Positions 35,001 to 58,650 of a stretch of 64,000 bases of DNA are shown in pieces. The position numbers and the translations under genes were made by a program. Source of the DNA: a virus. A model generated the notes under the pieces. It saw only the letters and a list, made by a program, of their open reading frames with translations, made no database searches and was not told the origin of the DNA. The stretch lies in the IMG/VR virus record IMGVR_UViG_3300008113_005947, positions 11,326-75,325 of that record. One strand, written 5' to 3'. How positions within the stretch are numbered: the stretch's first letter is position 1; every line of letters starts with the position of its first letter.

Positions 35001-38000
35001 TGTACTGGTGTGAAATTTTTTCTATATATTAATGGGTACCCAGATTGTCCATAATCAGTGGTTGCCCACGCCCAATTAAATAATGTTCCGTCATTTTTTA
35101 TTAAAGTTATCCAATTTGGTGAGCTGAATGCATATCCTGTCACATCTATAAAACTACCAGACAAAGCAGTAAGTTGCACTGGGCTACTACGTGATATAGT
35201 AGTGCCATCTCCTAATTGATTAAGTGAGCTTCCACTAGCACCCCATGACCATACAGTACCATTAGTTTGTAAACCTATAGTTACAGTTCCTATAGGAACT
35301 ACTTTACTCCATGTATACTGGGCTCCTATTTGTACTGGACTGCTACGTGATATAGTATCATTTAGTCCTAATTCTTTAGCACCCCATGCATATAATTCAC
35401 CAGCTGAATTAATTGCTGTTGCAAAACTCATACCTGCACTTATAGCAGACCACGATTGATTTACTGTTTGAGTTATTTGTACAGGACTACTACGAGGGAA
35501 TCCATCACCATATCCTAATTGTCCTGAACTATTTTGTCCCCATGCAAATAAACTTCCGAATGGATCTATAGCTAATGCAAAATTTTCTCCGGCTGCAACT
35601 GATGTCCAATAACTAGTACCTATTTGTACTGGACTACTACGTTGTATTGTAGTACTATCACCTAATTGTCCGTACCAATTATCTCCACCAACACCCCATA
35701 ATGTACCGTCTAGACGTATTTGATATTGAGTAAGACCTCCGCCTGTTGCTAATTGTATCCAGCTATGTGTACCGTTAATGCCCGATTCGGCTGTAGCAAG
35801 AGTTCTAAATCCGGCTATTATCCAAAGTGATCCGTCAGTTTGTATTCCGAAATTAGCTCCAAAGGTAGAGGAATCATTGCTTGCAATAGCAATACTTTGC
35901 CAATTAGATGCACCAATTTGTACAGGACTACTCCTACTTACAAAAGTTCCGTCTCCTAAGTAACCAGCTGATGATCCCCATGCAAATAATTTATTGTCTG
36001 ACCGTATTGCAAAAACTGACCCTGCAATTGAGTTTGGACCTGTTGCTCCAAACACACTTTTCCAACTATTATTACCTACTTGGGTTAGTGTGTTCCTATT
36101 TACTGTATCATTTAAACCTAATTGACCATAAGTATTGGGCCCTGCACTAAATAAAATACCATCATATCTTATTGCATAGATGTTAGCGGGGCCGCAACCT
36201 ATTTGAATCCAACTATCATTTGAAATTTGTACTGGGCTACTACGATTGATAGTACTTCCGTCACCTAAATTTCCACCTCCATTCCATCCCCATGCAAAAA
36301 GAAAACCTGTATTAGCTTCTAAAGCAATTACATGTAATGAGCCGGTATCTACTTTACTAAATGTTCTGCTAGATGCAATTTGAACTGGACTACTACGGTT
36401 AGCTATACTATTATCACCTACAGAACCATAAAAATTATATCCCCATGCATACAATCTACCTGCTGAATCTAAAGCAACAGTAAAGTTTTGGCTATTTCTT
36501 ACAAAACTCCAATTATTATTAGTACCAATCTGTATAGGACTACTACGAGTTATAGTGGTTCCGTCACCTAACTGACCTTCAAAATTTCTACCCCAGCCCC
36601 ACAATGTACCGTTTGTTTTGATAGCCATTAAATGAGATTCACCCGCCGATATAACAGACCATGATGCTATATCTGTTATATTATTTCTTGCAAGTTGACC
36701 AAATTGATTATTACCACTAGAAAATAATAATCCATTAATATCTATTCCTAATGAAAAATTATTTCCCGCGGATACAACATTCCAACTACTTGTCCCAACT
36801 TGTAATGGGCTATTTGTTGATGTTACCGTGTTTAAGAACAATTGACCCTGATTATTATTCCCCCAAGCCCATAATGTTTTATCACTGCGAATTGCTAACG
36901 TATGATTAGTACCTGCACTTATTGCTGTCCAACTACTTGTTCCAAGTTGTGTTGGACTATTAAACAATAATGTTCCACCTACTTGTACCGGGCTAGACCT
37001 AGTTGAACCTGCAGTAACTAGACCCGAAATAATATAATTATCGCCCTGACCACTGTCACCTCCCCAGGCCCATAAATTGTAAGAGGTATCAAGTGCCATC
37101 ATACCGCGTTGGGTGTTAACTAACTGAAGCCAATTTGAAGTTCCGAGTACTTGAGTAGGATTTGATTTATTAATAGTAGTACCATCACCTAGTTGACCAA
37201 AAGTCGAATTAAGTCCCCATCCTATTACTTTTCCTGAACTATCAATAGCAGAATGATGACTTTGTGTAGATTTTACTGCTACGCTAGAAACACCATTAGC
37301 TATTTGTACAGGATCACTTCTTGAAATTACTGTTCCATCACCTACTGTGCCTATAATATTAGTGCCCCAACCATATAATGTACGATTGGTATTTAAAGCA
37401 TAAGAATTATTTAAGCCAGCACCAACACCACTCCAATTAGATAAAAATCCTAACTGTACAGGGGTGCTACGACTTATAATGTTACCGTGACCTAATTCAC
37501 CATTAAGATTGTAACCATGTGACCACAATGTTCTATCATTTCTTATTGCTAATGTGAATTCAAGACCTAATGCAACATCATTAAATTTGACACTTACTGA
37601 AACTTGTACAGGGCTACTTCTAGCAATAAGAGTGTTGTCTCCAATTTGACCAGCACTGTTTGACCCCCACATAAAAAGATTACTGTTTACGTCAATTGCC
37701 GCTGTAGTTCCCTGTCCCAAACTAGTGTTTCCGGGATTGGCTCTTACTAATGTCCAACTACTTGATCCTACTTGAACTGGACTTGACTTACTAACAGTAG
37801 TATTGTCCCCTAGTTGTCCTTGTGCATTATAACCCCAACTGAATAATCTACCATTTATATCTATTGCAAAGGAAGTGCTAGGACCGGCAGCTATGAAAGA
37901 CCAACTGCTATTTCCTATTTGCACTGGGCTAATACTATTACTAACATCACCTTTACCCAACTGACCTGTAGTATTTTCACCCACAGCCCATAAAGTGTTG

Positions 38001-38413
38001 TCTTGTCTTAGTAGTAATGTATGAGTCCATCCAGTAGCTATAGATTTCCATCCAGCATAATTAAATATACCACCTAAACCTAATTGATTAGATGTGTTAC
38101 TACCCCAAACATACATTAAATTGTCACTACGTAATGCAAGACTATGACTAGCACCAGCATTAATATTATTCCAACTATATCCTAAACCAATCTGTACAGG
38201 ACTACTACGTGTGAGATATGTACCATCACCCAACTGTCCTGAAGAATTCAAACCCCATGCATATAGCAAGTTGTTACTTTTTATAGCCAAAGCATGAGAA
38301 CCACCTACACTAAGCTGTTTCCAGCTGGTGCCTATTTGTATAGGGCTTAACGAATATTGAGTAGTGTAACCGGCAACCTGTGTTAAACTTGAACGGTTTG
38401 TATTAATACTCAT
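23060..38413 (-). CDS. Giant RCC1/BLIP-II-repeat beta-propeller protein, part 3 (5117 aa, about 96 repeats)
   Basis: About 50-aa repeat SWxxVSAGxxHxxAIxxDGTLWxWGxNxxGQLGDxTxxxRSSPVQI; ATGA overlap with the upstream gene. Confidence 0.92.
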   Translation of the reverse strand: MSINTNRSSLTQVAGYTTQYSLSPIQIGTSWKQLSVGGSHALAIKSNNLLYAWGLNSSGQLGDGTYLTRSSPVQIGLGYSWNNINAGASHSLALRSDNLMYVWGSNTSNQLGLGGIFNYAGWKSIATGWTHTLLLRQDNTLWAVGENTTGQLGKGDVSNSISPVQIGNSSWSFIAAGPSTSFAIDINGRLFSWGYNAQGQLGDNTTVSKSSPVQVGSSSWTLVRANPGNTSLGQGTTAAIDVNSNLFMWGSNSAGQIGDNTLIARSSPVQVSVSVKFNDVALGLEFTLAIRNDRTLWSHGYNLNGELGHGNIISRSTPVQLGFLSNWSGVGAGLNNSYALNTNRTLYGWGTNIIGTVGDGTVISRSDPVQIANGVSSVAVKSTQSHHSAIDSSGKVIGWGLNSTFGQLGDGTTINKSNPTQVLGTSNWLQLVNTQRGMMALDTSYNLWAWGGDSGQGDNYIISGLVTAGSTRSSPVQVGGTLLFNSPTQLGTSSWTAISAGTNHTLAIRSDKTLWAWGNNNQGQLFLNTVTSTNSPLQVGTSSWNVVSAGNNFSLGIDINGLLFSSGNNQFGQLARNNITDIASWSVISAGESHLMAIKTNGTLWGWGRNFEGQLGDGTTITRSSPIQIGTNNNWSFVRNSQNFTVALDSAGRLYAWGYNFYGSVGDNSIANRSSPVQIASSRTFSKVDTGSLHVIALEANTGFLFAWGWNGGGNLGDGSTINRSSPVQISNDSWIQIGCGPANIYAIRYDGILFSAGPNTYGQLGLNDTVNRNTLTQVGNNSWKSVFGATGPNSIAGSVFAIRSDNKLFAWGSSAGYLGDGTFVSRSSPVQIGASNWQSIAIASNDSSTFGANFGIQTDGSLWIIAGFRTLATAESGINGTHSWIQLATGGGLTQYQIRLDGTLWGVGGDNWYGQLGDSTTIQRSSPVQIGTSYWTSVAAGENFALAIDPFGSLFAWGQNSSGQLGYGDGFPRSSPVQITQTVNQSWSAISAGMSFATAINSAGELYAWGAKELGLNDTISRSSPVQIGAQYTWSKVVPIGTVTIGLQTNGTVWSWGASGSSLNQLGDGTTISRSSPVQLTALSGSFIDVTGYAFSSPNWITLIKNDGTLFNWAWATTDYGQSGYPLIYRKNFTPVQVSNSSWTMISVHSNSGIGIRNNKLYTWGSNVGGQLGTYNPLSWIFSGGIGYSANNGQYAIDSDGTLWTWAQLLNQLRYGGNIYDPVIASVSSPTQVGLAINTDLKFSKVAASTRGTYAITNTGKLFAWGTSNTNNSSGENYYTIPEQTYSWTSVTVGYQSTYALRNDGVLFAWGNNSFGQMGIGTTATPQASPTVVTYDNTLSFRPTNSLFFTNWNSIATAMPGAFHMAAINSNGTLFVWGYNASGQIGDGTTVNKSWITRIGTSSWTQVTLGANTTLAIRKDGYLFSWGLNNNGQLGDGSTINRSSPVQLGAYKWSSVVLVATTDGNNNTTLAIRSDNTLWAWGMNSLGQLGDSTTITRSSPVQIAGSWLFIGGSGATQNVFAINTDYKLFTWGAGVSTSAATSAAPTIASGIAWNTIAFTLGNSAIAADRLGRLYSWGTNESGVLGDGLTVQRLSPIQIHTGASYTFIAAGGSAVAAIRSDTSLWGWGNNQYGQFGTNETISRSSPVNIGGGGNYRRAAIGNTEAAYINTAFNLFTSGRNNVGQLGFGDTVTRSQPVQIGIGNSWIDVHAGQSFFVALDSNSKLWAWGLNTSGQLGDGTTINRSSPVQITSSVSYVAIGTAWDSSVAIDNLGRLYTWGINNVGQLGFGDTLNRSSPSQVGTSSWSQVQTGQFLVSALRIDNTLWAWGWNIWGQVGDNTIISRSSPVQMSAIYPTSFTQLNAITLPHKYGVGQANAILWGDQYALELWGIGALLGSTTNTNRSGPTQVGIDASRSSPVQVGTSSWIQVTSAGSSYVALIRADNSLWMVGNNTWSQYGDGTTVSRGYPAQMRTNVQKVSLGGLSGTTMTLTDNKLYAAGYNATSELGLGNAATQSSWTQVGVNTAHEIQQIFAGSSFTQVATSQFRTMVIKDDATLWTWGYNNLGQLGLGDTISRSSPVQISGSWSQISLGLSHSVGLRTDGTVYTWGGNSAGQLGDGTIVNKSSPIQLAGSYTAIGSNEGYTTYLLKTDGTLWGTGYNNDGMIGDSTTVNKSSPIQIGTGNSFSQIGVYSQSILAVRSTDNTLWAWGLNTSGQLGDGTTTSRSSPVQITSMGSGGTFLLSNNYSNFLTQTTIMFIKDSLLYSMGLGTSGELGDNTAVSKSVPTLVASGPRKMIMSPTQLGNSNWSTVSAGNNNMFAIDSNSRLFTWGTASSGSLGLLQGADYQSIASKGGFDTNTFTKGFTQWIKGNLTLWAVGDNSSGELGDNTTVSKSSPIQIGSSLWTQVSIGVNHIHAIRVDGTLWGWGNATGGTLGDGTTISRSSPVQIGVKTNWTNTDGWYAGAHAINSLGQLWGWGVNTDGVIGDNTNVSKSSPVQIGSDTTWLALYTNPASNQVAAIKTDSTLWTWGVNTYGQLGDNSTISRSSPVQIAGSWTMVSMNGAGNTGNFNMYGIKTDGTMWGWGRNNQGATGGYIGDDTSTDASSPVQIGSSITTSWKAVYGWYYGAFALSQNNFLYYWGSMSGAANWTGVATTSNTITLLGGVRFRDYTTWTRYTFGCFWPSASGLAYVWGVNSTGLLGDTTTVNKSSPVVLAGTDATIAYSPTQLPTFDGSASSWISVKSANNYTYAIKNDYTLWAWGNNNSGQFGDGTTISRSSPVQVGGSSWAQVGGGTDWTLAIKMIVGSTTGTLWAWGRNNLGQLGLNDTIDRSSPVQVGTLNTWTKVVRTNGSTAFALTTSTNNLYIWGDNSSGAIGDNTTINKSNPVQITSPSVSWTQIGHGIAVTSTGTLYTWGNNSTGSLGLGDTANRSAPTQVGLLTTWSFLPNYTYSNNFKAAGTTGNVIWAMGANDSGQLGDNSTVSRSSPVQVAGGLALNQMSLGVNQMAAITTIGTLYAWGNNSVGSLGVNDTLNRSNPTQITGSWTSVWATTNMIGIRTNSSVWAWGRNNNYSFSDGTSVDRSSPVQVGSASLSSSLFPYNMPLLAIACNNEQATWIIDASGLLYAWGVNTYGQLGDNTTVSKSSPTQLRWASSYTQIGTFTFGSTFGLALKSNYMLDAFGINSNGQLGDGTTITRSSPVQIGTSSILYTAVPNKINNTTSFNQVIAGNYHAFALNTQGLLYGWGENTTSQLGNNTAPEIYVETGTNSADGVGYAITSSRRLFVWGLNTAGQLGFGDTINRSSPVQLAGSWTSVTIGHSNMLGIRTDGTLWGWGYNNVGGLGDNTVNSKSSPVQIGALANWFRVIAGATTYAINTSGQLYAWGYNANGQLGDNTTINRSSPVQILTGFSFTVLPTSIGTNTLITTGALHVGAIDTVGRLWTWGNNAVGQLGFGDTLNRSSPIQIGTSSWTQISVGGSHTMALRQDNTIWTWGINAVGQLGDNTTISRSSPVQVGTLIMLPSWKMISAGLSHNVAIRADNTLWAWGLNTSGQLGDSSLSNRSSPVQVSTIGGVAANNFYVGVGGNEWSYVSAGYLKSHAIAPDGQLFAWGNPPVGVIGITTNQSWPVAVDFDFTVIAATSNNLISSPTQIGTSSWSVISAGARNSFGIKPDGTLWGWGSNYFGSLGIVAGDTLRDYNSGGYILNSTKQLYVWGGNVYGQLGQNDTINRSNPVQVGGSWLQLASTNYTSTGHKLAIDTSYNLWSWGYNNQGQLGDGTTINRSQPVQILNPNIWKDISAGNALTMGLRYDGSIWAWGAGLQLGQNDIISRSSPVQVGTSSWLVISAAAGCAHAIRIDGTLWGWGSNSFGQVGDGTTVNRSSPVQIGALAIWSKLAVSGGNSLGGMAAINKLGQLFVWGLNNNGQLGDNTFVNKSSPIQIMTTSSFTFIAAGEGFRMIDILGKLYVCGENTQGELGTNTTIRRSSPVQVGTANSWIMATMGSQDGSGTGQYTLALATDGTVWTWGNNSYGQLGDNTTISRSSPVQMGSDTWSYAVAGTISTAIRNNLLYVWGRNLTGALGLNDTLNRSSPVQLSATTSYVLASSGTPTNDGGIAVFAITTKGFLISIGGRNSNVGQFGDGTTIARSSPVQIGTNGTSWTQIFSVGADSGAMQIAIMDDNTLWAWGQNLYGQLGQNDTISRSRPVQILGSWTTAAAQGGQGAGTQGVLAIKTDGTLWAWGDNTYGQLGDGTTVSRSSPVQIGSNNNWSSVAIAVYTKAAINTLGQLYNIGGWNNYGEFGDDSNHLLYRSSPVQIMSGYSFTQIVSIFSSAGSYIARTTTGTIWSWGLGNVGQLGDGTTITRSSPVQIGTSSWVSIGSGTGNNGVAIGLLNDGTTNRLFVWGNGLTGQLGDNTVVSKSSPVQLDSVYTANTFAFYSSPVQIGTSSWIAVSTGGGTTFAIKADFTLWAWGNNGPNGQLGNNTTIYRSSPVQIGTSSWIAVSVAKIANYNTYPIVGRTPTAYYDAIYVSAIRSDGLLFAWGNNPVGNIGNNTTGLIAGPVQINTVGQNPFIYPNKLRTTIGLSFITVGVGASYVTALKTDGLLYVWGTDGLGQLADNSTVTTTSTPITVGGLSQTYIAGINQIGNSSWSQVSAGYSHTLGITRDSRLFGWGSSAGVNPMPIGIGAGNNAGWQYSGGSGGGGYVRHAIRNDGTLWATGYNNYGVLGDNTTITRSSPVQVSGGGSWIIVDCASYATAGATYAIKTNYTLWAWGQNAAGQLVQGDRIARSSPVQIPGSWASVCAATYVQTFVFAIKPDNTLWAWGDNSAGQLGDATIISRSSPVQVFASKRWLQVAVSDSGFTVALDTDNIAWSWGRNIYGQLGDNTTIDRSSPYQIGTEKHIQVAASINNIYLLRATGQIFATGLGQNGGVGDNNTVRRSSPVQVASSSLFKQVVSKGTNVENAFAIDINNNLWAWGYNLQGELGDNTTIYRSSPVQITASGNVVSIAQSGNVGGYIDKFSQIWLWGFNTYGGMGDNTTVNKSSPVQVNTGLTGIINSSPVVVASGSWTQVRAGNEFSLITDTNNALYFWGRNDLHQSGTNSYAVYVSSPIQIGSSVVSSPSTVGSGGTGGGFIKNI

Positions 38414-41400
38414 GTACCGTCCCCCAGTTGTCCATTGCTGTTGTTACCAAATGTATATACTGAACCATCAGATTTTTCTATTATGTTATGATTGTATCCA
38501 GCACTTATTAGTGTATAACTAGAACTACTAATTTGCACTGGACTACTTCTATTTATCGTAGAAGAATCGCCGACTTGTCCATTTACATTGTAACCCCAAG
38601 CAAATAACAATCCTGAGGAATTTTTTGCTAAACTATGATTTTCTCCTGAACTTACACTACTCCAACTATCTGTACCTATCTGTACGGGACTACTTCTATA
38701 ATAATTACCATAATCAACTGATCCAATTTGTACTGGACTGCTTGCGTTGGCTGCGGCAACAAATGACATACCGGCTAATTTATACTGTACACCGTATGTA
38801 TTTGTATTGTTTTGTCCCAATTGACCGGTAGTATTTAATCCTGATGCTACCATCTTATAACCTAATACAGGATCATTAGACATAACTGCTGTTATATGTG
38901 AACCACCTGATGCTAGTAGGGTAAAGTTATATGTGCTTAATTGTACTGGACTAATTCTATCCGTAGTACTTCCATCTGATAATATTGAACTTGAACCACC
39001 ATTGGATCCCCATGCAAACAAGCTATTATTAGATAAGATACCATATGCAAAAGAATAACCTGCAGATACAGTACTCCAATTACTGTTACCTACCTGTGTA
39101 GGACTACTTCTATTTTGAAGTAAAGAAATTTGTACTGAGTTTATTGATCCTAGTTGTACTGGACTGCTACGATTTACGTTTTGATTATCACCTAATGAAA
39201 CCCATCCAGCTGAGTTGAAACCCCATGACCAAACTAGTTCTTGATTTTGTGCTGTAGCGCCTGATATCGTTGTTGTAGCAAAGGTACTATCATATCCTAA
39301 AGATAATTTACTCCAAATAATTAAAGGTAAGTTGCCAACCCATGATGAAATTATTTGCACAGGACTACTACGTGATACAGTTGTAAAATCTCCTAGTTGT
39401 CCTTCATTATTACGACCCCACATCCACAGTACACCACTTGTTGATATAGCACCTGAATGTGAACTTCCTGCAGAAATAACAGACCAGCTACCTGCAATTT
39501 GTACCGGGCTACTACGTGATATAGTAGTATTATCTCCCAATTGGCCAGTACTATTACTTCCCCATGACCATAGTGTATTATCAGTTTTCAATCCTAATGC
39601 ATGTGTTGTTGGGGTGACAAATCCTGTAAAGTTAGAAGCATTTATCTGAGTCCAACTACCTGGTATTTGACTAGGTGTATATTCAATATATCCTGTTGAC
39701 AATTGTACTGGACTACTTTTGTTAATAACGGTATTATCTCCTAATTGACCAACACTATTTGATCCTACTGTAAATATTGACCCTGATGAATTTCTAAATG
39801 CGGCATATGAACTTCTCACCGATACAATAGTATTGTTAGTTGAAGAACCTACTTGTCTTGGTTGGAATTGGGTGCGGCTGGCCAGTGCAAAGTTATTTCC
39901 TGTTTGACCAACATTATTACTTCCCCATGACCATAATGTACCATCTGTCTTAACAGCAAATTGATTGTTCACACTAAAATTGTCATTACCGAAACCTACT
40001 TGTGTCCATGAACCTGCAATTTGTACTGGAATAGGTTGAAACATAGATAACGATAAAACGCCGGACCACACTGCACCTGTGATTGACTTATTAGTAAGAG
40101 TTAAATCACCTAATTGACCTGTTGTGTTAAGTCCCCAAGCCCACATTTTTCCAGTTGGTTCGTTTGAAACTAGTATATAGTTTCTTTCAAAACCACTGAA
40201 CAGTTGTATAAATGAGGCGCTGTTGGCAGTATTTAAACTAAGTAGCTGTACAGGGCTACTACGACTAACTGTTGATGAATCACCTACTTGACCACTATTA
40301 TTTCTACCCCAAGCAAATACTAGATAGTCTGTCCTTACTGCTGTAGTAGAACGGTCTGTAGTTGCCAATGTAATCCAACTAGCGTCAGTTCTCACTTGTA
40401 CTGGACTACTACGATGCACTGTGTCATTAAGTACTCCTAATTCTCCGTTGTTGTTAGCACCCCATGCAAATAATTGTCCTAATGTATTTAAATATGCAAA
40501 TCCATTAGCATACGGACGCATTTGTGATACGTTTGCAAAACCTGATGTAACTTGTACCGGGCTACTACGATTCACGGTAGTATTTGATGCAAGCTGTCCA
40601 AGACTATTACTACCCCAAGTCCAATATGTACCATCGTTTTTCAATGCCATACTCATTGCGGCACCGCCCCAGATATTTGTCCAGGTACCTGCAAGTTGCA
40701 CTGGACTACTTCTACTGGCAGTAGAACTATCACCTAACTGACCGTTACTATTAATTCCCCATGCCCATAATGTACCATCTGTCTTAATAGCTAACATATG
40801 AAAGTTTGACCTGCCTGTCATAAGAACAGACCAACTACCGGCTATTTGAGTTGGGCTACTACGTGATATAGTATCACTTTGACCTAATTGACCATCGGTA
40901 TTACTACCCCATGCCCATAATGTAGCGTCATCTTTTATACCAAAAGATGCACTGTTTGGTGCGTTTGTATTAGCACCTGCAACTAGGGTCCATCTTCTTA
41001 CTCCACCTGCTGTAAGTACAATAGGACTAGATTTAGTAACTATGGTGTTATCTCCTAATGCACCAGCAGTACCTAATCCATACATGTATAATGTATTATC
41101 CCCCCTTAGAGCCATAGTATGACTATCTGAACCGGCTATTTGTGTGAAGCTATAAGTAATTCCCAATGCCTGATATTCGTTATATCCCCATACCCATAAT
41201 GTACTATCTGATTTAATTGCCGCACTACTGTACTGTCCTGCAGTGACTTGTGTAAAACTAGAACCAACTTCTAATTGAATTGGTCTAGGAGCCCACAATC
41301 TATAAACAACATTGTTACTAATAGTGAAGGGATATAATGTTGTGCTACCCAGATAATAATTACCTGCCGCAGATACCTGTACCGGGCTACTACGATTTAT

Positions 41401-44400
41401 TGTAGTGTTGGTGCCCATAGCTCCTATTGAACCATTACCCCAAGTCCATGCAATACCATTATTATCGACACCGGTAATTGTTTGTGCGCCTTGAGATGAG
41501 AATGTATATGATATTGGGGTTCCTATACCTGTGCCCGGACTTCCCGATTGTGTATAAACGAAATTGGTAGCTATCTGTACTGGACTGCTACGTGAAACGG
41601 TAGTGTTGTCACCCACAAGTCCAAGACTTGTACTCCAGCCCCAACCATGTAATGCTAATGATGCTTTGTTTGATGAATATTGAACACCAAAGAATCCTCC
41701 GTTATTTGTACCACTACTCTGGTCTGCGTATCCATAAACCTGAGTCCAGCTGTTAGCACCTATTTGTACTGGACTACTTCTAGCTACTGTATCATTTTGT
41801 CCACAAGATCCATTAGTGTTTACGCCCCATGCAAATAATCTTCCAACACTATCAATTGCTGCCATGCCACCTTGTGTTGTAGCAACTGCACTCCATGTAC
41901 TAGCACCTATTTGTACAGGACTACTACGGTTTACTGTATCATTCAACCCTAAACCACCTGCACCATTCGCCCCACTGTTAAGTCCCCAAGACCATAATGT
42001 GCCACCGGTTTTAATTCCTAAAGCCATATCTCGTTTAATACTGATAGTAACCCAACTACCAGGCACTTGTACAGGACTGCTACGATTAACAGTATCATTT
42101 AAACCTAACACACCTGATGTGTTTAACCCCCACATATACAATCTACCATCATTAGTTATTGCGGCAGTTACTTCACCAACTTGTGATGTTGTAAAGAAAT
42201 TGAAAGTTAATCCTGTTGTCCCTGCTACTTGAACTGGACTACTTCTAGCGACAGTAGTTAAATCTCCTATTTCTCCATTGGTATTACTTCCCCAACTCCA
42301 CAGTGTACCGTTTGATTTCATAGCATGTGTAGTTGACGTTGTTGTGTTATATCCTGCACTTTCTGATTTTACCCATAGATTATCTGTTGCAGTTCCTAGA
42401 ATACCTGGAATGTTATTATCAGCAGTACTATTATTACCCATTTGACCAAAGTTATTTCGTCCCCAAGTCCATAGATATCCGTCATTTGTAACTCCTGATC
42501 CAGCACCATATGTTAGCCAATGTTGTCTAAGGGCTGTTCCGCCAGTTAACTGCAATAATCCATTATTGCCCCAACCATACAATTGTCCTGTTGTTCTTAG
42601 TGCAAGTGTATGTGATGTACCCGGTGCCACTTGACTCCAATTTGTAATACTACTAGCTACTTGTACTGGACTACTTCTATTAATAGTAGTACCGTCACCA
42701 ACAGCATATAAAGTATTAGCACCCCAGGCCCATAATGTACCGTCAGTTTTTATAGCATAAGTTACTTCAAATCCAGCTGACACATAAGTATAACTACCTG
42801 CAACTTGTACCGGACTAAGATAAGTTGTAGTATTATTTTGACCTAATTGACCTGAATTATTTTTGCCCCAAGTAAATAATCTCCCTGAAGCGTCAATTGC
42901 CGCAACATGGCTCCAACCAGTTGCTACGCTAGTCCAACTACTATTTCCTATTTGTAGTGGATATGAAATATTAGTAGAGGGAAGAGCGTCACCAAAGCCT
43001 AATTGACCAATATTGTTGTTCCCCCAAGAAAATAATTTACCATCACTACGTATTGCTATCATAAATCCAGTATTGTCTGCACTATTTGCACCGGCACTTA
43101 TTGTAGTCCATGAATATGTTGTTGATAGACTTCTTCCTAATTGTCCAAAGTCATTTGCTCCCCAACTCCATAATGTACCGTCGGCTTTTAATGCTAACGT
43201 AAAATTAGATCCTACACTTATTGCAGTCCATGAACTAGTGCCTATTTGTACAGGGCTTGAAAGTAATTGAGTTGCGTATATATCGGTTCCAAATTGACCG
43301 TAAATATTATTACCCCAAGCCCATAATGTATTATCACTCTTAATAGCCAATGAAGTGAAACCACCATAACCAGAAGATACGGATAACCATGAACTATTAC
43401 CTATTTGTATAGGATTACTTCTTGCTATAGCACTACCGCCTGTATTATCACCTAATTGACCATACCGATTATCACCCATAGAATATAATTTATCATTTTG
43501 ATTAATCAATAGCGATGATAATCCACCACCGGATACGTCTTTAAAAAATAATGATCCGGCTTGTACAGCCGTAACTACGGAATTGGCAACAGTACCTAAT
43601 CCTAATTGACCATTGGCATTATTACCCCATGCAAATGTTGCATAATCTTCTCTTATTGCAAATCCGTTATAATAGCCACCTGCTACTAGTTTTCTAATAG
43701 TTGATACATATCCCAATTGTCCAACAGTATTAGAACCCCATGTAAATAATTTACTAGTAGTTGTAATTCCTGTACTAAAATCAACTCCAGCAGATACTAC
43801 ACTCCAACTGCTACTACCTATTTGTAGGGGATTATTTATTGTACTATAACTTAGTGATCCAACTTGTACTGGACTACTACGGTTTACGTTAGTATTATCA
43901 CCTACAGAACCATTTGCGTTTGAGCCCCAAGCAAAAAATCTACCAGCAGTATCAATTGCCGATGATACAAAATTATTACATGCTACAGCTGACCATGTGC
44001 TTGCACCAACTTGTACAGGGCTACTACGACTAATCGTAGTGTTTTGACCTAGTTGACCCCCATCATTTCTGCCCCATGACCATAAGAAATAACTAGAATC
44101 TAATGCTATTGTAAGTGAAAGACCTAATCCAAGTTTATACCACGTTTTGCCAACACCTGCTTGAACAGGACTACTTTTGTTAATAGTGGTACTATCACCT
44201 ATTTGACCAAAATTATTATATCCCCAAATCCATAATGTATTATCAGATTTAATACCACCTGATATGCCGTTTCCTGCAGTTATACTAGTCCAATTACCTG
44301 AAATTTGTACTGGACTACTACGTGCGGCAGTAGTACCATCACCTATCTGGCCAAATGTATTATTGCCCCATGCCCATAATGTATTGTCTGCTTTTCTTGC

Positions 44401-47400
44401 TAAAAATGTTCTTCCACCTGCGGCGCTGTTTGCTCCTTTGCCTCCTACTACCTCTACAAAAGTAGTTCCGGCAAGTACTTGTACCGGGCTACTACGAGTG
44501 ACTGTGGTTGCACCATTGTCGCCATATATACCACCAAACCATTGACCCCATACATATATAGTATTATCTGTTTTTATACCTAACGTAGTTTCGGCAGTTA
44601 CTGCAACAATAGACCAACTGCCACCACCGGATACCTGTACAGGACTGCTTCTATAAGTTACAGTATTATCACCCAACTGTGCGTTACTGTTTGCGCCCCA
44701 TCCCCATAATGTTCCGTCTGACTTGATTCCGAATGTGAAATAATCAACAGGGAATACACCTTCACCGCTAGCTACTATCATAGTCCAACTACCTGCAACT
44801 TGTACTGGGCTACTTCTACGAATAGTAGTGTTATCTCCTAGTGACCCGCTAGGATTATTATCTCCCCACATAAATAATTGTCCGGCACCGACAGTATCTG
44901 ATAAAATATATCCATTAGTATTGCCGCCGCCTACTAACAACATTGATATAGTTTTTGGAGTATTATATCCCACTTGTCCAGTATCATTCTTACCCCAAGC
45001 ATACAGTTTACTAGTGTTATCTATTGCAAGTACATGTGACGCTCCTGCACTTACACTAGTCCAAGATTTAGCACCAAGTTGAATAGGTACACTACGTGTT
45101 ACTGTATCTCCTTGACCCAATTGATATACAGAATTAAGACCCCAGGTAAATAATCTACTAGAAGTATCAATGGCACTACTATAACTTAATGAAGCTGATA
45201 TTTTAATGAACTCGTTAGAATACCCATTGGATAAAAATATAGGACTTGACCGTGCTACAGTATCACCTAAACCCAATGCACCAAATGTATTATTACCCCA
45301 TACATACAGTTTATTCTGTCCATCACGTATCATCATAGAGCCACGATTGATATATGCTTCTTTTAAATTTCCAGTAAAAGGCAATGCAACAACACTACTT
45401 CCTATTTGCACAGGGCTACTAGTATTAGCACCCGAAGATGTTATTAAGCTGTTACTTGTGTTTGTGCCCCAGCCCCAAATTGTATTATCGCTTCTTCTTG
45501 CTAGTGCTGTTCCACCACCACTAGCGTTTAATGTACCCTGTAAATCAACCCATCTATTATCTGCAATTGTTCCTAATTGTACCGGACTACTTTTATTAAC
45601 TATGTCACCTAATCCTAAAACACCGGTGGCGCCTTGACCCCATGTGAATATGTATCCGTTACCTATTGCACCTGCTGAATATTCACCTAAATTAGTAACA
45701 CCAGTAAATGTTATATTACTGAAAGGTGTAGCTACTTGTACAGGACTACTACGAGATAATGTAGTGCCATCACCTATTGTACCGTATGTTTGGTTTCCGC
45801 CCCAACCATATATTACGTTGTTAGTATCACTAGCAATGAAGGCAGCATTAGATGAAAATCCAAATCCATTAACTGGACCTATAATATAATTCCAGTTAGT
45901 TGATGTTCCCACCTGTACAGGACTTGATTTAGTAACAGTAGTACCATCACCCAACAATCCACCATCTCCATATCCCCATGTCCATAATGTTCCGTCAGTT
46001 TTTATTGCCGCGCTTGAACTTATTCCTGCCGCTATAACAGAAAAATCACTTAATGATAATACTTGAGTTGGGCTACTGCGTGAGACAGTACTAGTTAATC
46101 CTAATTGCCCTACGTTATTCATTCCCCAACCCCAAATTTTATTACCAGTAAGCGCAAGTATATGACGCCATCCTGTAACTACCTGGCTAAATGAAGATAA
46201 TCCTACACCAACACCTCCATTTAATTGCACTGGACTTGATTTACTAACAGTAGTACCATCACCTATTTTTCCATCACCACCATTACCCCATACAAATAAT
46301 AATCCACCTACTTTTATACCTACTGTAAAGGCATTGCCTGCACCTAATGCATTATAACCATATACACTAGTCCAACTACCTGCAATTTGCACTGGACTAC
46401 TACGTGATACAGTAGTACCATCACCTAACTGACCCTGGTTATTATCACCCCATAAGAATAATCTACTATCTGTTGTTATTGCCCCATACACACCTTTAGT
46501 AAGACTAGCCCAATTAGTATTAGTACCTAGTTGTACAGGACTACTGCGACTAATTGTAGTTCCATCACCTAAATACCCCGCACTATTAAATCCCCAGGCC
46601 CATAATGTGCCATCATTTCTGATAGCCATGACTGCACCTGATACTACTGATACAGCGGACCATAAAGTACCACTATTAATTTGTATAGGACTGCTACGTG
46701 ATACCGTAGAGCCATCACCAAAAGTTCCTTCAGCATTTCTTCCCCAACCCCACAGTGAGCCACCGCTTAAAAAGAATGTAGTTGTGTCTGTTGTTAAACT
46801 TGCAGTGTTTACGTTATAACTTAATTTAACGCCTATTTGTACTGGGCTACTTCTACGAATAGTAGCACTATTGTCACCAACTTGCCCAAAATCATTAAAT
46901 CCCCAACCCCACAATGAGTTATCACTTTTGATACCATATCTATTATATGCAGTATAGGCAATAGTTGGTATATAGTTCCAAGTACCAGCTAATTGCGTTG
47001 GCGCACTACGACTTGCTGTTGAAGTATCTCCAACTTGTCCATATATATTATTTCCCCATGCAAAGTATACACCGGTATTAGTAAGTGCTGTGCCTGCACT
47101 AATTTGAGTAATACTTAAGGCAGCAAAAGTTGCAATTTGTACTGGACTACTTTTTGCTACAGTCGTACTATCTCCAATCGCTCCGCTAGAGTTGCTTCCC
47201 CAAGCCCAAAGATTACCATTACCTGTAGTCAGTGCATATGTGGTGTCCTCCATTGTTTTTGCTACTAATGCCCATGAAGTTAATGCACCAACTTGGACAG
47301 GACTACTTCTATTAATTGTATCTCCTAACCCGAGTTGTCCTGCATTATTATATCCCCATGTCCATAATGTACCATCACTTTTAACTGCGGCGCCGTGAAA

Positions 47401-47727
47401 GCCACCACCACCTATTGACACCCAGTAAGGTGCAAAAATTTGTATTGGGCTTAATCTAGTTGTATTAGTACCATCACCTACTTGGAAGGCTGCATTACCG
47501 CCCCATCCCCATAATGTATAATCAGACCTGATTCCCAAAGTATGATTCGCTCCGGCACTTACATTAAGCCAACTTGATGTACCTAGTTGTATTGGACTTG
47601 ATTTACTAGCAGTGGTATTATCACCTAATTGTCCTGATGTGTTATCCCCCCAGGCCCACAAGGTGCCGTCACTTCTGACTGCCATACTATGAGAAGATCC
47701 GTTACTAATAGTTGTCCAACTTAACAT
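38410..47727 (-). CDS. Giant RCC1/BLIP-II-repeat beta-propeller protein, part 2 (3105 aa, about 58 repeats)
   Basis: Same repeat; starts at a repeat boundary and ends mid-repeat (GQLGDGT*); TAATG overlap with the upstream gene. Confidence 0.92.
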   Translation of the reverse strand: MLSWTTISNGSSHSMAVRSDGTLWAWGDNTSGQLGDNTTASKSSPIQLGTSSWLNVSAGANHTLGIRSDYTLWGWGGNAAFQVGDGTNTTRLSPIQIFAPYWVSIGGGGFHGAAVKSDGTLWTWGYNNAGQLGLGDTINRSSPVQVGALTSWALVAKTMEDTTYALTTGNGNLWAWGSNSSGAIGDSTTVAKSSPVQIATFAALSITQISAGTALTNTGVYFAWGNNIYGQVGDTSTASRSAPTQLAGTWNYIPTIAYTAYNRYGIKSDNSLWGWGFNDFGQVGDNSATIRRSSPVQIGVKLSYNVNTASLTTDTTTFFLSGGSLWGWGRNAEGTFGDGSTVSRSSPIQINSGTLWSAVSVVSGAVMAIRNDGTLWAWGFNSAGYLGDGTTISRSSPVQLGTNTNWASLTKGVYGAITTDSRLFLWGDNNQGQLGDGTTVSRSSPVQIAGSWTSVYGYNALGAGNAFTVGIKVGGLLFVWGNGGDGKIGDGTTVSKSSPVQLNGGVGVGLSSFSQVVTGWRHILALTGNKIWGWGMNNVGQLGLTSTVSRSSPTQVLSLSDFSVIAAGISSSAAIKTDGTLWTWGYGDGGLLGDGTTVTKSSPVQVGTSTNWNYIIGPVNGFGFSSNAAFIASDTNNVIYGWGGNQTYGTIGDGTTLSRSSPVQVATPFSNITFTGVTNLGEYSAGAIGNGYIFTWGQGATGVLGLGDIVNKSSPVQLGTIADNRWVDLQGTLNASGGGTALARRSDNTIWGWGTNTSNSLITSSGANTSSPVQIGSSVVALPFTGNLKEAYINRGSMMIRDGQNKLYVWGNNTFGALGLGDTVARSSPIFLSNGYSNEFIKISASLSYSSAIDTSSRLFTWGLNSVYQLGQGDTVTRSVPIQLGAKSWTSVSAGASHVLAIDNTSKLYAWGKNDTGQVGYNTPKTISMLLVGGGNTNGYILSDTVGAGQLFMWGDNNPSGSLGDNTTIRRSSPVQVAGSWTMIVASGEGVFPVDYFTFGIKSDGTLWGWGANSNAQLGDNTVTYRSSPVQVSGGGSWSIVAVTAETTLGIKTDNTIYVWGQWFGGIYGDNGATTVTRSSPVQVLAGTTFVEVVGGKGANSAAGGRTFLARKADNTLWAWGNNTFGQIGDGTTAARSSPVQISGNWTSITAGNGISGGIKSDNTLWIWGYNNFGQIGDSTTINKSSPVQAGVGKTWYKLGLGLSLTIALDSSYFLWSWGRNDGGQLGQNTTISRSSPVQVGASTWSAVACNNFVSSAIDTAGRFFAWGSNANGSVGDNTNVNRSSPVQVGSLSYSTINNPLQIGSSSWSVVSAGVDFSTGITTTSKLFTWGSNTVGQLGYVSTIRKLVAGGYYNGFAIREDYATFAWGNNANGQLGLGTVANSVVTAVQAGSLFFKDVSGGGLSSLLINQNDKLYSMGDNRYGQLGDNTGGSAIARSNPIQIGNSSWLSVSSGYGGFTSLAIKSDNTLWAWGNNIYGQFGTDIYATQLLSSPVQIGTSSWTAISVGSNFTLALKADGTLWSWGANDFGQLGRSLSTTYSWTTISAGANSADNTGFMIAIRSDGKLFSWGNNNIGQLGFGDALPSTNISYPLQIGNSSWTSVATGWSHVAAIDASGRLFTWGKNNSGQLGQNNTTTYLSPVQVAGSYTYVSAGFEVTYAIKTDGTLWAWGANTLYAVGDGTTINRSSPVQVASSITNWSQVAPGTSHTLALRTTGQLYGWGNNGLLQLTGGTALRQHWLTYGAGSGVTNDGYLWTWGRNNFGQMGNNSTADNNIPGILGTATDNLWVKSESAGYNTTTSTTHAMKSNGTLWSWGSNTNGEIGDLTTVARSSPVQVAGTTGLTFNFFTTSQVGEVTAAITNDGRLYMWGLNTSGVLGLNDTVNRSSPVQVPGSWVTISIKRDMALGIKTGGTLWSWGLNSGANGAGGLGLNDTVNRSSPVQIGASTWSAVATTQGGMAAIDSVGRLFAWGVNTNGSCGQNDTVARSSPVQIGANSWTQVYGYADQSSGTNNGGFFGVQYSSNKASLALHGWGWSTSLGLVGDNTTVSRSSPVQIATNFVYTQSGSPGTGIGTPISYTFSSQGAQTITGVDNNGIAWTWGNGSIGAMGTNTTINRSSPVQVSAAGNYYLGSTTLYPFTISNNVVYRLWAPRPIQLEVGSSFTQVTAGQYSSAAIKSDSTLWVWGYNEYQALGITYSFTQIAGSDSHTMALRGDNTLYMYGLGTAGALGDNTIVTKSSPIVLTAGGVRRWTLVAGANTNAPNSASFGIKDDATLWAWGSNTDGQLGQSDTISRSSPTQIAGSWSVLMTGRSNFHMLAIKTDGTLWAWGINSNGQLGDSSTASRSSPVQLAGTWTNIWGGAAMSMALKNDGTYWTWGSNSLGQLASNTTVNRSSPVQVTSGFANVSQMRPYANGFAYLNTLGQLFAWGANNNGELGVLNDTVHRSSPVQVRTDASWITLATTDRSTTAVRTDYLVFAWGRNNSGQVGDSSTVSRSSPVQLLSLNTANSASFIQLFSGFERNYILVSNEPTGKMWAWGLNTTGQLGDLTLTNKSITGAVWSGVLSLSMFQPIPVQIAGSWTQVGFGNDNFSVNNQFAVKTDGTLWSWGSNNVGQTGNNFALASRTQFQPRQVGSSTNNTIVSVRSSYAAFRNSSGSIFTVGSNSVGQLGDNTVINKSSPVQLSTGYIEYTPSQIPGSWTQINASNFTGFVTPTTHALGLKTDNTLWSWGSNSTGQLGDNTTISRSSPVQIAGSWSVISAGSSHSGAISTSGVLWMWGRNNEGQLGDFTTVSRSSPVQIISSWVGNLPLIIWSKLSLGYDSTFATTTISGATAQNQELVWSWGFNSAGWVSLGDNQNVNRSSPVQLGSINSVQISLLQNRSSPTQVGNSNWSTVSAGYSFAYGILSNNSLFAWGSNGGSSSILSDGSTTDRISPVQLSTYNFTLLASGGSHITAVMSNDPVLGYKMVASGLNTTGQLGQNNTNTYGVQYKLAGMSFVAAANASSPVQIGSVDYGNYYRSSPVQIGTDSWSSVSSGENHSLAKNSSGLLFAWGYNVNGQVGDSSTINRSSPVQISSSSYTLISAGYNHNIIEKSDGSVYTFGNNSNGQLGDGT

Positions 47728-50700
47728 TATGTATTATTTCCTATCTGTCCAAACGTATTATCACCCCATGTAAATAAATTACCATACGCATCAATTGCAT
47801 TGCTACTATTATTAGTAGCGGCAATATACTTATATATCTTAGTACCTACTTGCATCGGACTACTTCTAGGTAATAAGCTACTATTATTTAACCCGCCGTT
47901 AAGATTGGCTCCCCATGTCCATATTGTACCATTTTGTGCCAATGCTACACTATAACTTTTGCCTGCTTGGACATCTGTCCAATTGCCTGATACTTGTACT
48001 GGACTTGATTTAGTAACAGTAGTACCATCACCTAATTGTCCATTACTATTTGTACCCCATGTCCATAGTGTATTATCGATTCTAATTGCTGTAGTGAAAT
48101 TATCAGATACACTACCTATTATCCAACTATTTGTTCCAATCTGCAATGGGCTACTTCTATTAGACGTTGTTATATCTCCTAATTGTCCGAATCCATTATA
48201 GCCCCACATATATAATCTACCCAAAGCATCTATTGCCATGCTAGTTGACATACTAGCATTAACAAATGCCCAGCTACTTAATAGTCCTATACGAACTGGT
48301 CTATCATAAAAATTTCCTTTTCCTGTACCCATTTGTACAGGGCTACTGCGTGAAAGAACATCATTAAATTGTCCCAATTTTCCAGAGTCGCCTTGACCAG
48401 TCACCATAGTAGTATCATTCAATACACCAAATATATTAACACTGCCTGCATATAAATTAGTAAAGCTAAATGATCCTACTTGCACCGGGCTACTTCTAGA
48501 TAGAGTATCATTTTGTCCTAACTGTCCCCAAGTATTATCTCCCCATGCCCATATTGTTCCATCAGTTCTTAATGCACTAGAGAAACTATAACCTGCACTT
48601 ATTTGAGTATAACTGCTAGAATTTAATTGTATAGGGGATGGTACTATAGTTTTTAGTGCTGTATCTATTTGTACAGGACTACTTCTTGAAATTACAGTAC
48701 CATCACCTAGTTGTCCTGAACTATTCGACCCGAATGTAAATAATACTCCCGCAGAATTTATATATCCTGCTTGATTTTCTATACCACTAATTAAATCTGT
48801 GTTAGGAAGCTGTTTATATGTTCCAGAAAGTACAATGGGACTTGATTTATTAACTGTGGTATCATCACCTAGTTGACCTAATTGATTACGACCCCATCCA
48901 TACACTACACCACCACTAGTTCCGAGTACCGTAGTTGCAAATGCAGTTACGTCAGTCCAACTACCAGGTACTTGCACTGGGCTACTTCTAGCTGTTGTAT
49001 TATTTTGTCCTAATTGTCCGTATAAATTTTGACCCCATGACCATAAAGTATTATTAGATTGTAATGCTACTACACCATATAAAGTAGATACAACTTTAGT
49101 CCAAATATTCAATGTACCAACTTGTACTGGGCTACTTCTATTAATTGTAGTTCCACTACCTAAATTTCCATTGACATTGAGACCCCAGGTCCACAGTGTG
49201 CCATCTGTTTTTACTATAGCTACATATGATAAACCTTGACAAACTGAACTTATGCCACCGCCAAATATTTGCACAGGACTACTACGACTAATTGTACTAT
49301 TATTCCCTAGTTGACCTACGGAGTTACTACCCCAAGCATACAATCCACCATTACTTGTTAAACCTATTGTGTTTCCATTTGTAGTATAAATTTTAGTCCA
49401 ATTGAGAGCAGTTCCTATTTGTATCGGACTACTGCGATATATTGTAGTATTATCACCTAGTTGTCCAATATTATTGTATCCCCATCCATAAAGAACACCA
49501 GAAAAATCTACTGCAAACATACTTGCAGAACCAAAATCACCACCTAAGGTTCCTAAAAAGCTAAATGACATTGTACTAACTTGCACTGGACTACTTTTTG
49601 ACACTGTAGTACCATCGCCATATGACGGCGTTGTAACGCCTACAGTTGAACCCCATGCATATAAGTATCCACCATTTTTTAATCCAAAAGTAGTAGAACC
49701 CATTGATACTTGTAGCCAACTATTAGAAGAAGTTATAGTTGCAAGTTGACCGAATGTATTACTACCCCAAAGATATAAGCTATTATTAATCAAACCCATA
49801 ACGTGTGAACTGCCTGCGGCAATTTGAGTCCAACTACTTGTTCCTATTTGTATAGGGCTACTACGATAACCCATATTAGATTCTAAGTTATTTGCTAATA
49901 CTCCAAATGTTCCATTGCCCCAACTCCATAATGTACCATTACTCTTAGTAGCGATAGTAAAATCACTTTTTATACTTACTAAATTCCAACTACCACTAGT
50001 TTGTATTGGGATTGAACGAGTGACTGTAGTATTATCACCAACTTGGCCACTAGAGTTAAGTCCCCATACAAATAATCTCTTGTCTGTTGTTATTGCGGCA
50101 CTAAAAGATGCGCCGGCGGTTATTAAACTCCAGCTACTATTACCAACTTGTAACGGGCTGTTTCTAGCTGAGGCTGAACTTCCAGTACTTGTTTGTGTTG
50201 GGCTACCTTTATCAACTGTAGTATTATCACCCAATTGACCTGTAGTGTTAAGTCCCCATGTATTAAAATTACTAAGAACATCTAGTCCATAAGAACTATA
50301 TGCACCTGTAGAAACATAAGTCCAACTGCTAGTACTTACTAAAGAAATTTCTCTAACTGCTGTATTTACTATCTGTACAGGATTACTTCTTGCTATAGTA
50401 GTACCATCACCCAACTCACCATTTTTGTTTCCACCAAATGCAATTGCATATCCTTGGCTAGAATAAGCTATAGTATGAAACTGAGTGTCAGTACTTGCAG
50501 GAATGCCAGCACCACCTGCATATACTTGAGTAAATGATATACCTGTAGATATTTGTACAGGACTACTTGTATTGTTTATTGTATTATTACCCAACTGTCC
50601 TGCAGAATTCAAACCCCAGGTAAATAATCTACCTAGGCTGGTAATCCCGACTGAATGAAAGGTTCCAACAGAAATATTAGTCCAATTACTGTTACCTACC

Positions 50701-57587: not shown

Positions 57588-58123
57588 TACGCCTCCTCAG
57601 GTTTAACAGGATAGACTACTGTACTTTCATCCAAAAATTCTGGATCATTTTCATATATGGCAGGTAAGTCTCTCAACTCCTGTCTATACGTATTGTACAG
57701 TGCTGTTAGTTGTTCTCCATTAAGTTGCATAACGTCTGCTAATTGAGTAAAATCTGTAGCAGTTAATAAAGTATCTCTTTTCATTCTTAATTGAGCCATA
57801 GCGTCTATATGTCTATTTAGCTTAATTTGAAGTAGCTGTTCTTCGGTTGGTATCACCGGTTCAGGTGGAGTATATATAGGTAAATTAACAACTTCTAAAG
57901 TTTCTATTACTGTATCATTTTCAATTCTATATACTGGATTTCCTAATCGCTGAGTATTAGGATCATATATAGGTACTTCTTTAACTAATGTTCTCCAACC
58001 TAATGAGTATATATAACTCTCATCGGATAGAGCATGAAAATTACTTATGTTTCTCCAGTTATCCGGTAGCAAATCATAAACACCTGTAATTTTATTATCT
58101 TCAATGTGAGCATAATTTGCCAT
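57587..58123 (-). CDS. Tail-fibre assembly chaperone-like protein
   Basis: LRMKRDTLLTATDFTQLAD...YRQELRDLP...YP motif; start moved to ATG 58123 (TAATG overlap with the upstream gene). Confidence 0.75.
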   Translation of the reverse strand: MANYAHIEDNKITGVYDLLPDNWRNISNFHALSDESYIYSLGWRTLVKEVPIYDPNTQRLGNPVYRIENDTVIETLEVVNLPIYTPPEPVIPTEEQLLQIKLNRHIDAMAQLRMKRDTLLTATDFTQLADVMQLNGEQLTALYNTYRQELRDLPAIYENDPEFLDESTVVYPVKPEEA

Positions 58124-58650
58124 TATAAATTCTGCCCAGTAATAAAAGATTGCCAACTAGATCCAGCATCAACTGTAAAAAATACAAATACGTCTTTTTT
58201 TCCACTAGTTGAAGTTATTGTTGGTGCAACATTACTAGGCCATTTAAAACTTGAAGGCCAGGTCACTGCTCTTGCTGTTCCGTCTCCGGTAGTAATAAGC
58301 ACAAAAGAACTAACTCTACCTACAGCTTGTACATTTGTAACAGCCACTAAAGATATGTTGTTGTTTAATAATACTTCAAACAATGTTGCACCACTAATAT
58401 CTAGTGATAGAATATTGTTAGAAATAGTTACTAACTGTCTTTTTTCTGCACTGTTGTTGTTTAATAACAAACCATTTAAGTTTATAGTTCCTTGTAGACC
58501 TACAGTTGAAGTAGCAGGTACAAAAGTCAAATTAGGATTCACATAAGCTGAATTTGTTAACCCAGAAGAAGTAGGTTGCAGGTCAAGATAGTAAGTTGTT
58601 ACATCATTGATTGCAGTCGTTACCTGTAATACACTATTTGTCAATGACAT
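58123..58650 (-). CDS. Short tail-fibre/adaptor-like structural protein
   Basis: C-terminal VTWPSSFKWP..APTITST.GKKDVFVFFT.D.GSSW domain typical of phage fibre C-termini; AAGGAG RBS. Confidence 0.6.
   Translation of the reverse strand: MSLTNSVLQVTTAINDVTTYYLDLQPTSSGLTNSAYVNPNLTFVPATSTVGLQGTINLNGLLLNNNSAEKRQLVTISNNILSLDISGATLFEVLLNNNISLVAVTNVQAVGRVSSFVLITTGDGTARAVTWPSSFKWPSNVAPTITSTSGKKDVFVFFTVDAGSSWQSFITGQNL

Follow-up and report, generated by a model that had tools for sequence, protein, structure and literature searches.

The 64,000-nucleotide stretch of DNA analysed here (the window; positions 11,326 to 75,325 of the IMG/VR virus record IMGVR_UViG_3300008113_005947) belongs to a phage of fresh water with T4-like cyanophages as its relatives and carries three adjacent genes, g1, g2 and g3, the proteins of which are composed almost entirely of RCC1 repeats. 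We propose, at a probability of roughly 0.62, that these proteins form one tree-shaped assembly of about 30 RCC1-like propellers, in which separately translated chains would be locked together by strand and blade complementation. The proposal is based, among other evidence, on a bracket-like nesting of seven-bladed propellers which balances only across the three genes, as a preliminary description of the same DNA had claimed; gene boundaries that run through nested blades, one of them conserved in other phage lineages; and the predicted fold of a nested propeller. The assignment to the repeat family leaves little doubt, for both Pfam models of RCC1 repeats, PF00415 and PF25390, score above their curated cut-offs, with PF00415 reaching 180.9 bits in seven stretches of amino acid residues (aa) 1-351 of g2 and PF25390 scoring 254 bits against a cut-off of 150.

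The grammar of the arrays was established with two hidden Markov models, one for repeat strands A-C (unit O, with the consensus SW..AG..H..AI..DG.LW.WG.N..GQLG) and the other for the D strand (the closer, ..RSSPVQIG). Every gap between successive O units was read and a stack parse was then coded on the tokens, the tokenising being independent of the earlier reader. The usual blade consists of one O unit followed by one closer. At 24 places, an O unit leads directly into the next one after 2-11 residues, and equally at 24 places an extra closer stands 4-8 residues behind an ordinary closer. Taking these places as opening and closing brackets, a bracket being a blade whose strands A-C stand apart from its strand D, the stack parse resolves g1-g3 into 209 RCC1 blades and 24 brackets, with the split blades counted among the seven of their parent propeller. 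All 23 non-empty brackets contain a multiple of seven blades, namely 7 in 19 cases, 14 in two and 21 in another two; of 20,000 random valid bracketings of the same size, none had more than nine such brackets. The ten leaf cases having unmistakable motifs on both sides all enclose 7 or 14 blades. The ensuing tree comprises 29 complete seven-blade propellers plus the root, arranged in seven levels; along the sequence, a whole child propeller stands between the strands A-C of its parent blade and that blade's strand D.

Two other ways of reading the tokens were tried and rejected. A model relying on velcro closure alone, in which each propeller has the form C(OC)6O or (OC)7, is ruled out by the several successive openings that precede any extra closer and by the first event being an opening. 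In an eight-bladed reading, the outer half-blade and the extra closer would form an eighth blade of the child propeller; it is ruled out as well, since the parent frames then lose their seven and the ring modelled below has seven blades. A purely rule-based parser with gap-length thresholds found sevens in five out of five closures of g1; outside these it introduced openings that are spurious, and the counts for g2, g3 and the relatives came out scrambled, so that it was too noisy to be usable as an independent check of the parse. The arrays of related phages were inspected by eye at their ends and in a few leaf units. Two local features of the window's arrays may be recorded here. Blade Y6 (g3 aa about 2610-2640; 30500-30590) has no D strand recognisable in cis and no insert, being either three-stranded or endowed with a very degenerate closer, and a 25-residue stretch of g2 (..NYYLGSTTLYPFTISNNVVYRLWA; aa about 2119-2146, 41290-41370), which separates the closer of blade P7 from the extra closer PRPIQL, looks like a degenerate blade in miniature and lies outside the count of seven.

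The same parse shows where the brackets stand when each gene ends. Where g1 stops, three remain open (R1, A5 and C7); after g2 there are still two, and with g3 all are closed. Both g2 and g3 carry two orphan closers, that is, D strands present on one chain and missing from another. The preliminary description had stated that g1 stops with root blade 1, propeller A after five blades and blade 7 of propeller C unclosed, that g2 contributes eight whole propellers, two orphan closers and blades A6 and A7, ending in mid-blade at GQLGDGT, and that g3 opens by finishing A7 and closing root blade 1. All these statements were reproduced by our parse, those for g2 at the same coordinates, and the two closers opening g3 were indeed found. 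Four blades, C7, A5, A7 and R1, consequently have their outer strand on a later chain. Within propeller A, blade A3 holds the whole of propeller B and blade A5 is the one that g1 leaves open (aa 595-627); the unit left open in C7 is placed at g1 aa 3251-3283. The orphan closers in the tail of g2 belong to a run of three, D(K7)-D(C7)-D(A5), and the same run is present in relatives.

At the gene junctions, g1 terminates with FTWGDNTFGQIGNNT and g2 starts with MLSWTTIS, whereas g2 terminates with FGNNSNGQLGDGT and g3 starts with MSINTNRSSLTQVAGYTTQYSLSPIQIG; at both junctions the downstream gene lies in the -1 frame. Judged by its sequence, the g2-g3 boundary is exactly the point at which a cis chain passes from the last child blade into the pair D(child)-turn-D(parent), and the N-terminus of g3 is such a pair. 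A virtual join of the end of g2 with the start of g3 is colinear with seven cis examples of the succession 'child blade 7 - D(child) - D(parent) - next parent blade', and its sole departure from the ends of cis nest units is the addition of about three residues (MSx) where the cut lies. G-rich or AGGA stretches lie 7-15 nucleotides upstream of the stop/start overlaps, an arrangement that would fit a coupled translation of separate chains.

Relatives of the phage were compared at the two cuts. In two of them, G001, in which the flanking genes are 75-85% identical to those of the window, and G006, which has a ribonucleotide reductase 90% identical to that of the window, the array is made of two genes only and the upstream gene is uninterrupted (4821 aa and at least 4938 aa, respectively). 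Since this upstream gene is unbroken, the cut between g1 and g2 is specific to the lineage of the window. The cut between g2 and g3, on the other hand, is conserved in five other lineages, comprising G001/L121, G006 and the metagenome lineages L199, L200 and L202. In the conserved pattern, the upstream protein ends with GQLGDG(T/S) at the stop codon and the downstream one begins with MS, after which come a closer, a spacer of 5-8 residues and another closer that contains proline; the overlap is ATGA in four of the five lineages and TAATG in G006. Because every sampled relative keeps this cut, the sampled ancestor had two genes, and a fused form of g2 and g3 was not found among the best matches in viral and metagenome contigs. 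Hence the descent from one ancestral gene of about 11,500 codons, as initially suggested, is supported for the part now divided into g1 and g2 but not for the boundary of g3; of the related phages with the locus fused or split at other points, which the preliminary description recommended looking for, relatives with g1 and g2 fused were found.

The ends of the arrays are their best conserved parts, with 42-72% identity between phages, while the interiors show 35-41% identity, scarcely above the similarity of one repeat to another; ribonucleotide reductase, by comparison, reaches 90%. The whole locus (23060-57587), when compared with L094/L095 and with G006 (L118-L120), is hypervariable also in length: g1 and g2 together amount to 6391 aa here against 4821 aa of the upstream gene, and g3 has 5117 aa against 5123 and 4363 aa of the downstream gene. 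Blade A3 is ordinary and contiguous in L089 (10565-15661), where A1-A4 are uninterrupted, and it is opened in G001 as well as in the phage of the window, in which it contains a whole propeller. On this reading of the arrays, the difference among the relatives in A3 is one of whole propellers gained or lost within the loop of a blade, which accords with an origin of the nests by insertion. Unrelated viral RCC1 arrays with doubled closers and closer-less blades occur in other IMG/VR contigs (L133, L176, L123 and L131), and because they share these traits nesting may be widespread in environmental phages.

The window is part of a metagenome-assembled viral contig of 75 kb, about 21% complete, and the g1-g2 cut is not seen in relatives, so that the cuts might be regarded as errors of assembly or sequencing or, for g1-g2, as a recent inactivating break in a metagenomic variant. 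This we hold to be very improbable, given that contigs from independent studies reproduce both junctions: the one between g2 and g3 is covered without difference by contigs from three public runs that are independent of one another (dated 2017-2023, with samples of lake water, of drinking water and of crustacean-associated origin), the one between g1 and g2 lies in an independent contig (run X10) spanning 47593-47829 with 0 differences, and no insertion or deletion is listed at either junction in the contigs of independent runs. Besides, the g2-g3 cut recurs in the five other lineages and both cuts are canonical stop/start overlaps located in linkers. The doubt, voiced at the outset, whether the genes might really be one open reading frame is thereby answered in favour of separate genes.

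One long polypeptide could still arise from intact junctions if programmed -1 frameshifting, or a similar form of recoding, took place there, in which case all the nesting would be in cis. The -1 frame of the downstream gene at both junctions agrees with such a mechanism, as does a G run (CTGGGGGAC) situated four codons before the stop of g2, of which a shorter version is found at the same place in G001. Nevertheless, a fusion of this kind appears improbable, because an ATG overlaps the stop codon exactly in every lineage, because G006 has a different overlap (TAATG) without a slippery run, and because the downstream frame is open for just 10-11 codons ahead of the g3-type start and for just 2 ahead of the start of g2. 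A canonical slippery heptamer, X XXY YYZ, is absent too.

The fold of the nested units was studied with an alignment of twelve units of the form 'parent blade / split blade / seven blades / extra closer / parent blade', taken from the window and two relatives, which align in register with a mean column identity of 41%. An AlphaFold2 model of g3 aa 28-541 based on this alignment has a predicted local distance difference test score (pLDDT) of 83 and a predicted template modelling score of 0.73. Its inner seven blades (model residues 88-453) superpose on the whole propeller of UVR8, with a Z score of 49.9 and a root mean square deviation of 1.8 Å over 348 of 370 residues; HERC2 and RCC1 follow UVR8 in the list of structural matches, among which there is also BLIP-II. 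The outer strands A-C (model residues 54-78, pLDDT 85-92) and the extra closer, which is modelled as a strand (residues 456-463), are both outside the ring of seven blades. As the inner seven match UVR8 and the flanking strands remain outside, the child is predicted to be a closed seven-blade ring of RCC1 type, and not part of an eight-blade ring. AlphaFold2 applied without an alignment to g2 aa 1536-2690, which encompasses parent N with its children P and Q, returned an unusable model (pLDDT 28).

If the cuts are genuine and the chains separate, it has to be asked whether the chains need one another at all. The main rival to our proposal is that they fold and act separately, their open blades being three-stranded and the orphan D strands being leftovers of a split gene, which either dangle or form edge strands on the neighbouring propeller within the same chain. 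RCC1-like blades of three strands are known, as in BLIP-II, so that an open blade need not be completed; one blade of g3 (aa 2610) has no clear D strand in cis; and, given the spacing of 4-8 residues in closer pairs, an orphan closer could fold back as a hairpin onto the D strand before it in the same chain. Against this interpretation, the orphan closers equal the open blades exactly in number and follow the order of nesting, while those at the N-terminus of g3 keep their motif in six lineages though g3 has no unpaired strands A-C. The tail of g2, moreover, consists of two blades of a ring, one of which lacks its D strand, and alone it could not close a propeller; and the array ends are the best conserved parts. 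We thus consider the independence of the chains unlikely, albeit less so than frameshifting.

Several points weigh against the assembly that we propose, in addition to the existence of three-stranded blades. That the D strand of a parent blade pairs with its own strands A-C is something we infer, even where both lie in cis. A complex prediction was carried out for four fragments (g1 aa 1-175, g1 aa 527-632, g2 aa 3003-3105 as partner and g3 aa 1-78) and yielded a score of 0.08 against a mark of 0.32, without controls; since this single prediction gave no verdict and speaks neither for nor against binding, the obligate nature of the complex, too, is what we infer from the orphan strands. The sequencing runs listed as containing the locus include none of RNA. 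About eight degenerate closers were placed by gap length with the expected count known (for instance those at g1 aa 529-545, 2407-2420 and 3097-3104). The g1-g2 cut, not being found in relatives, could be a recent break that is tolerated. Finally, root blades 2-7 had been assigned to g3 and five of them, R2-R6, were found there (g3 aa 30, 80, 494, 543 and 5047), along with a C-terminal half-blade that resembles strands A and B; with R1, the root propeller has therefore six recognisable blades plus this half-blade. The half-blade may close the root on the N-terminus of g1, which has a short segment preceding strand C, in the velcro manner of RCC1.

How, then, would the assembly we favour be put together? 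Child propellers, singly or as tandems of two or three, would be inserted where the C strand of a parent blade loops over to its D strand. The gene boundaries fall in this same C-D loop or in a linker, leaving chains that end in three-stranded blades with the outer D strands on the next chain. The tail of g2 would supply the D strands of C7 and A5 together with blades A6 and A7, completing the propeller A begun in g1. The first N-terminal strand of g3 would complete A7 at the C-terminus of g2, and the second R1 at the N-terminus of g1; in the relatives with two genes, one and the same chain carries both of these ends. The chains would be translated next to each other, by way of the stop/start overlaps, and would then lock by complementation of beta-strands and blades. 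The pair of strands at the N-terminus of g3 suggests a more general device, a 'double donor-strand clasp', in which two strands at the start of a downstream protein would close two nested upstream propellers at once. Such a clasp, to which we give an even chance, would permit separately translated modules to be built into a tree with some 30 propellers and 11,500 residues, and new gene boundaries could arise at bracket points, as in the lineage of the window, with the assembly being kept. The features on which the foregoing argument is based are collected in table 1.

Table 1. Genes, junctions and split-blade elements of the RCC1 array in the window
Feature	Position	Strand	Description
Phage_tail_APC (tail assembly chaperone) gene	57587-58156	minus	upstream of g1; its stop overlaps the start of g1 (TAATG)
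g1	47727-57587	minus	3286 aa; R1 strands A-C, propeller A blades 1-5, propeller C with nested D, E, F, G and H; ends inside blade C7
Root blade R1, strands before D	57489-57587	minus	g1 aa 1-33; propeller A directly after
A1, A2 and A3 strands A-C	57069-57467	minus	g1 aa 41-173
A3 degenerate D strand, blade A4, A5 strands A-C	55707-56003	minus	g1 aa 529-627
C7 strands A-C, end of g1	47730-47846	minus	g1 aa 3248-3286
g1-g2 junction	47725-47729	minus	TAATG; TAA stop and ATG start share one base; linker between strand C of C7 and first strand of propeller I
g2	38410-47727	minus	3105 aa; eight whole seven-blade propellers (I, J, K, L, M, N, P, Q), two orphan D strands, blade A6, A7 strands A-C
Orphan closer 1 of g2	38722-38769	minus	MSFVAAANASSPVQIG; aa 2987-3002; assigned as D of C7 (strands A-C in g1)
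Orphan closer 2 of g2	38674-38721	minus	SVDYGNYYRSSPVQIG; aa 3003-3018; assigned as D of A5 (strands A-C in g1)
Blade A6 and A7 strands A-C	38413-38673	minus	72% and 55% identity to two relatives
g2-g3 junction	38410-38413	minus	ATGA; loop between strands C and D of blade A7
g3	23060-38413	minus	5117 aa; two orphan D strands, root blades R2-R6 carrying 14 nested propellers, C-terminal half-blade
N-terminal orphan D pair of g3	38330-38413	minus	MSINTNRSSLTQVAG, D of A7 (38369-38413); YTTQYSLSPIQIG, D of R1 (38330-38368)
C-terminal tail of g3	23063-23134	minus	resembles blade strands A and B (..GSGGTGGGFIKNI; ..G(F/Y)IKNI at the stop); conserved in two relatives

The genomic setting of the array points to a role in a virion appendage for adhesion. 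Among the flanking genes there are those for a virion structural protein (phrog_5838, 45% identical to that of S-RSM4), for tail-fibre-like proteins and for the Phage_tail_APC chaperone-like protein, besides ribonucleotide reductase, a GT25 glycosyltransferase and methyltransferases. Reading frames overlap also among a tail-fibre-like gene, the Phage_tail_APC gene and g1 (58123-58156, and TAATG at 57587, in the region 57587-58650), so that, together with the overlaps within the array, five genes make up one chain of overlapping reading frames. Two Laminin_G_3/ConA-like lectin domains of about 265 aa each are present in g1 (aa 1332-1914; 51846-53594), each inserted between two complete blades of a nested propeller (F2/F3 and F3/F4); apart from this pair, g1-g3 have no domains other than RCC1. 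Directly downstream of g3, the GT25 glycosyltransferase gene is accompanied by two methyltransferase-domain genes (19912-23002), in a synteny shared by G001 and G006, and these genes, together with the serine/threonine-rich loops of the repeats, may hint at a modification of the array. A megablast search of the locus against deposited phages gave no matches, and the nearest relatives in cultured phages, retrieved by tblastn, are RCC1 proteins of the Synechococcus phage S-SRM01 (Kyanoviridae), with 33% identity. It is the combination of tail-fibre and chaperone-like neighbours, lectin-like inserts, extreme divergence and the location of the S-SRM01 RCC1 genes beside tail-fibre genes that points to adhesion.

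In the literature on RCC1 proteins in phages, including cyanophages, and on nested or inserted propeller blades, we found no description of this architecture, nor of recursive nesting within one family, of gene boundaries running through nested blades or of two propellers being served by the same pair of strands. Should the chains indeed be locked through their orphan strands, the locus would, as far as we can tell, provide the first viral propeller completed in trans and the first case of one strand pair closing two nested propellers. It would show that very large repeat proteins can be divided into parts made separately while the fold is kept, and it would offer natural split sites for the engineering of propellers. 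With its hypervariable interior, two lectin-like domains and tail-fibre neighbours, the tree is a candidate organ of host adhesion in an abundant group of freshwater phages. In evolutionary terms, its recursion over seven levels, always with seven blades, is a striking case of evolution by repeated self-insertion of a domain.

Comparison with known systems brings out which elements of the locus are familiar and which are not. The repeat family and the fold are those of the RCC1-like seven-bladed propellers (RCC1, UVR8 and the RCC1-like domains of HERC2; PF00415/PF25390), but members known so far have either one propeller of about 350-400 aa or several separate domains in one protein, whereas here about 30 of them are inserted in one another's C-D loops across three open reading frames. 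The RCC1 genes of S-SRM01 lie beside genes for long tail fibre and baseplate, just as the array adjoins tail-fibre-like and chaperone-like genes; their products, unlike those of the locus, are single propellers of 344-405 aa, with no nesting or split blades annotated. In DDB1, CPSF160 and SF3B3, a propeller is inserted in the chain of another propeller and the parent is closed by the sequence that follows the insert. These proteins consist of three WD40-like propellers nested at one level in a single chain, while the nesting of the locus is recursive to seven levels and cut by gene boundaries. In chaperone-usher pili, an incomplete beta fold is completed by the N-terminal strand of the next subunit. 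There the fold is immunoglobulin-like, polymerisation is homotypic and a periplasmic chaperone takes part; membership of the locus in this donor-strand class is ruled out by its fold, that of an RCC1 propeller and not of an immunoglobulin-like pilin, and the principle alone is in common. Finally, in the complexes Sec13-Nup145C, Sec13-Sec31 and Seh1-Nup85, the open propeller of one chain receives its missing blade from another chain. The likeness to the locus lies in the completion of a propeller by a partner; the differences are that Sec13 and Seh1 are WD40 propellers, that a whole blade is donated to them and that they are components of eukaryotic coats and pores, while the proteins of the locus are proposed to donate single D strands and two blades, with one strand pair closing two nested propellers, among the products of adjacent phage genes.

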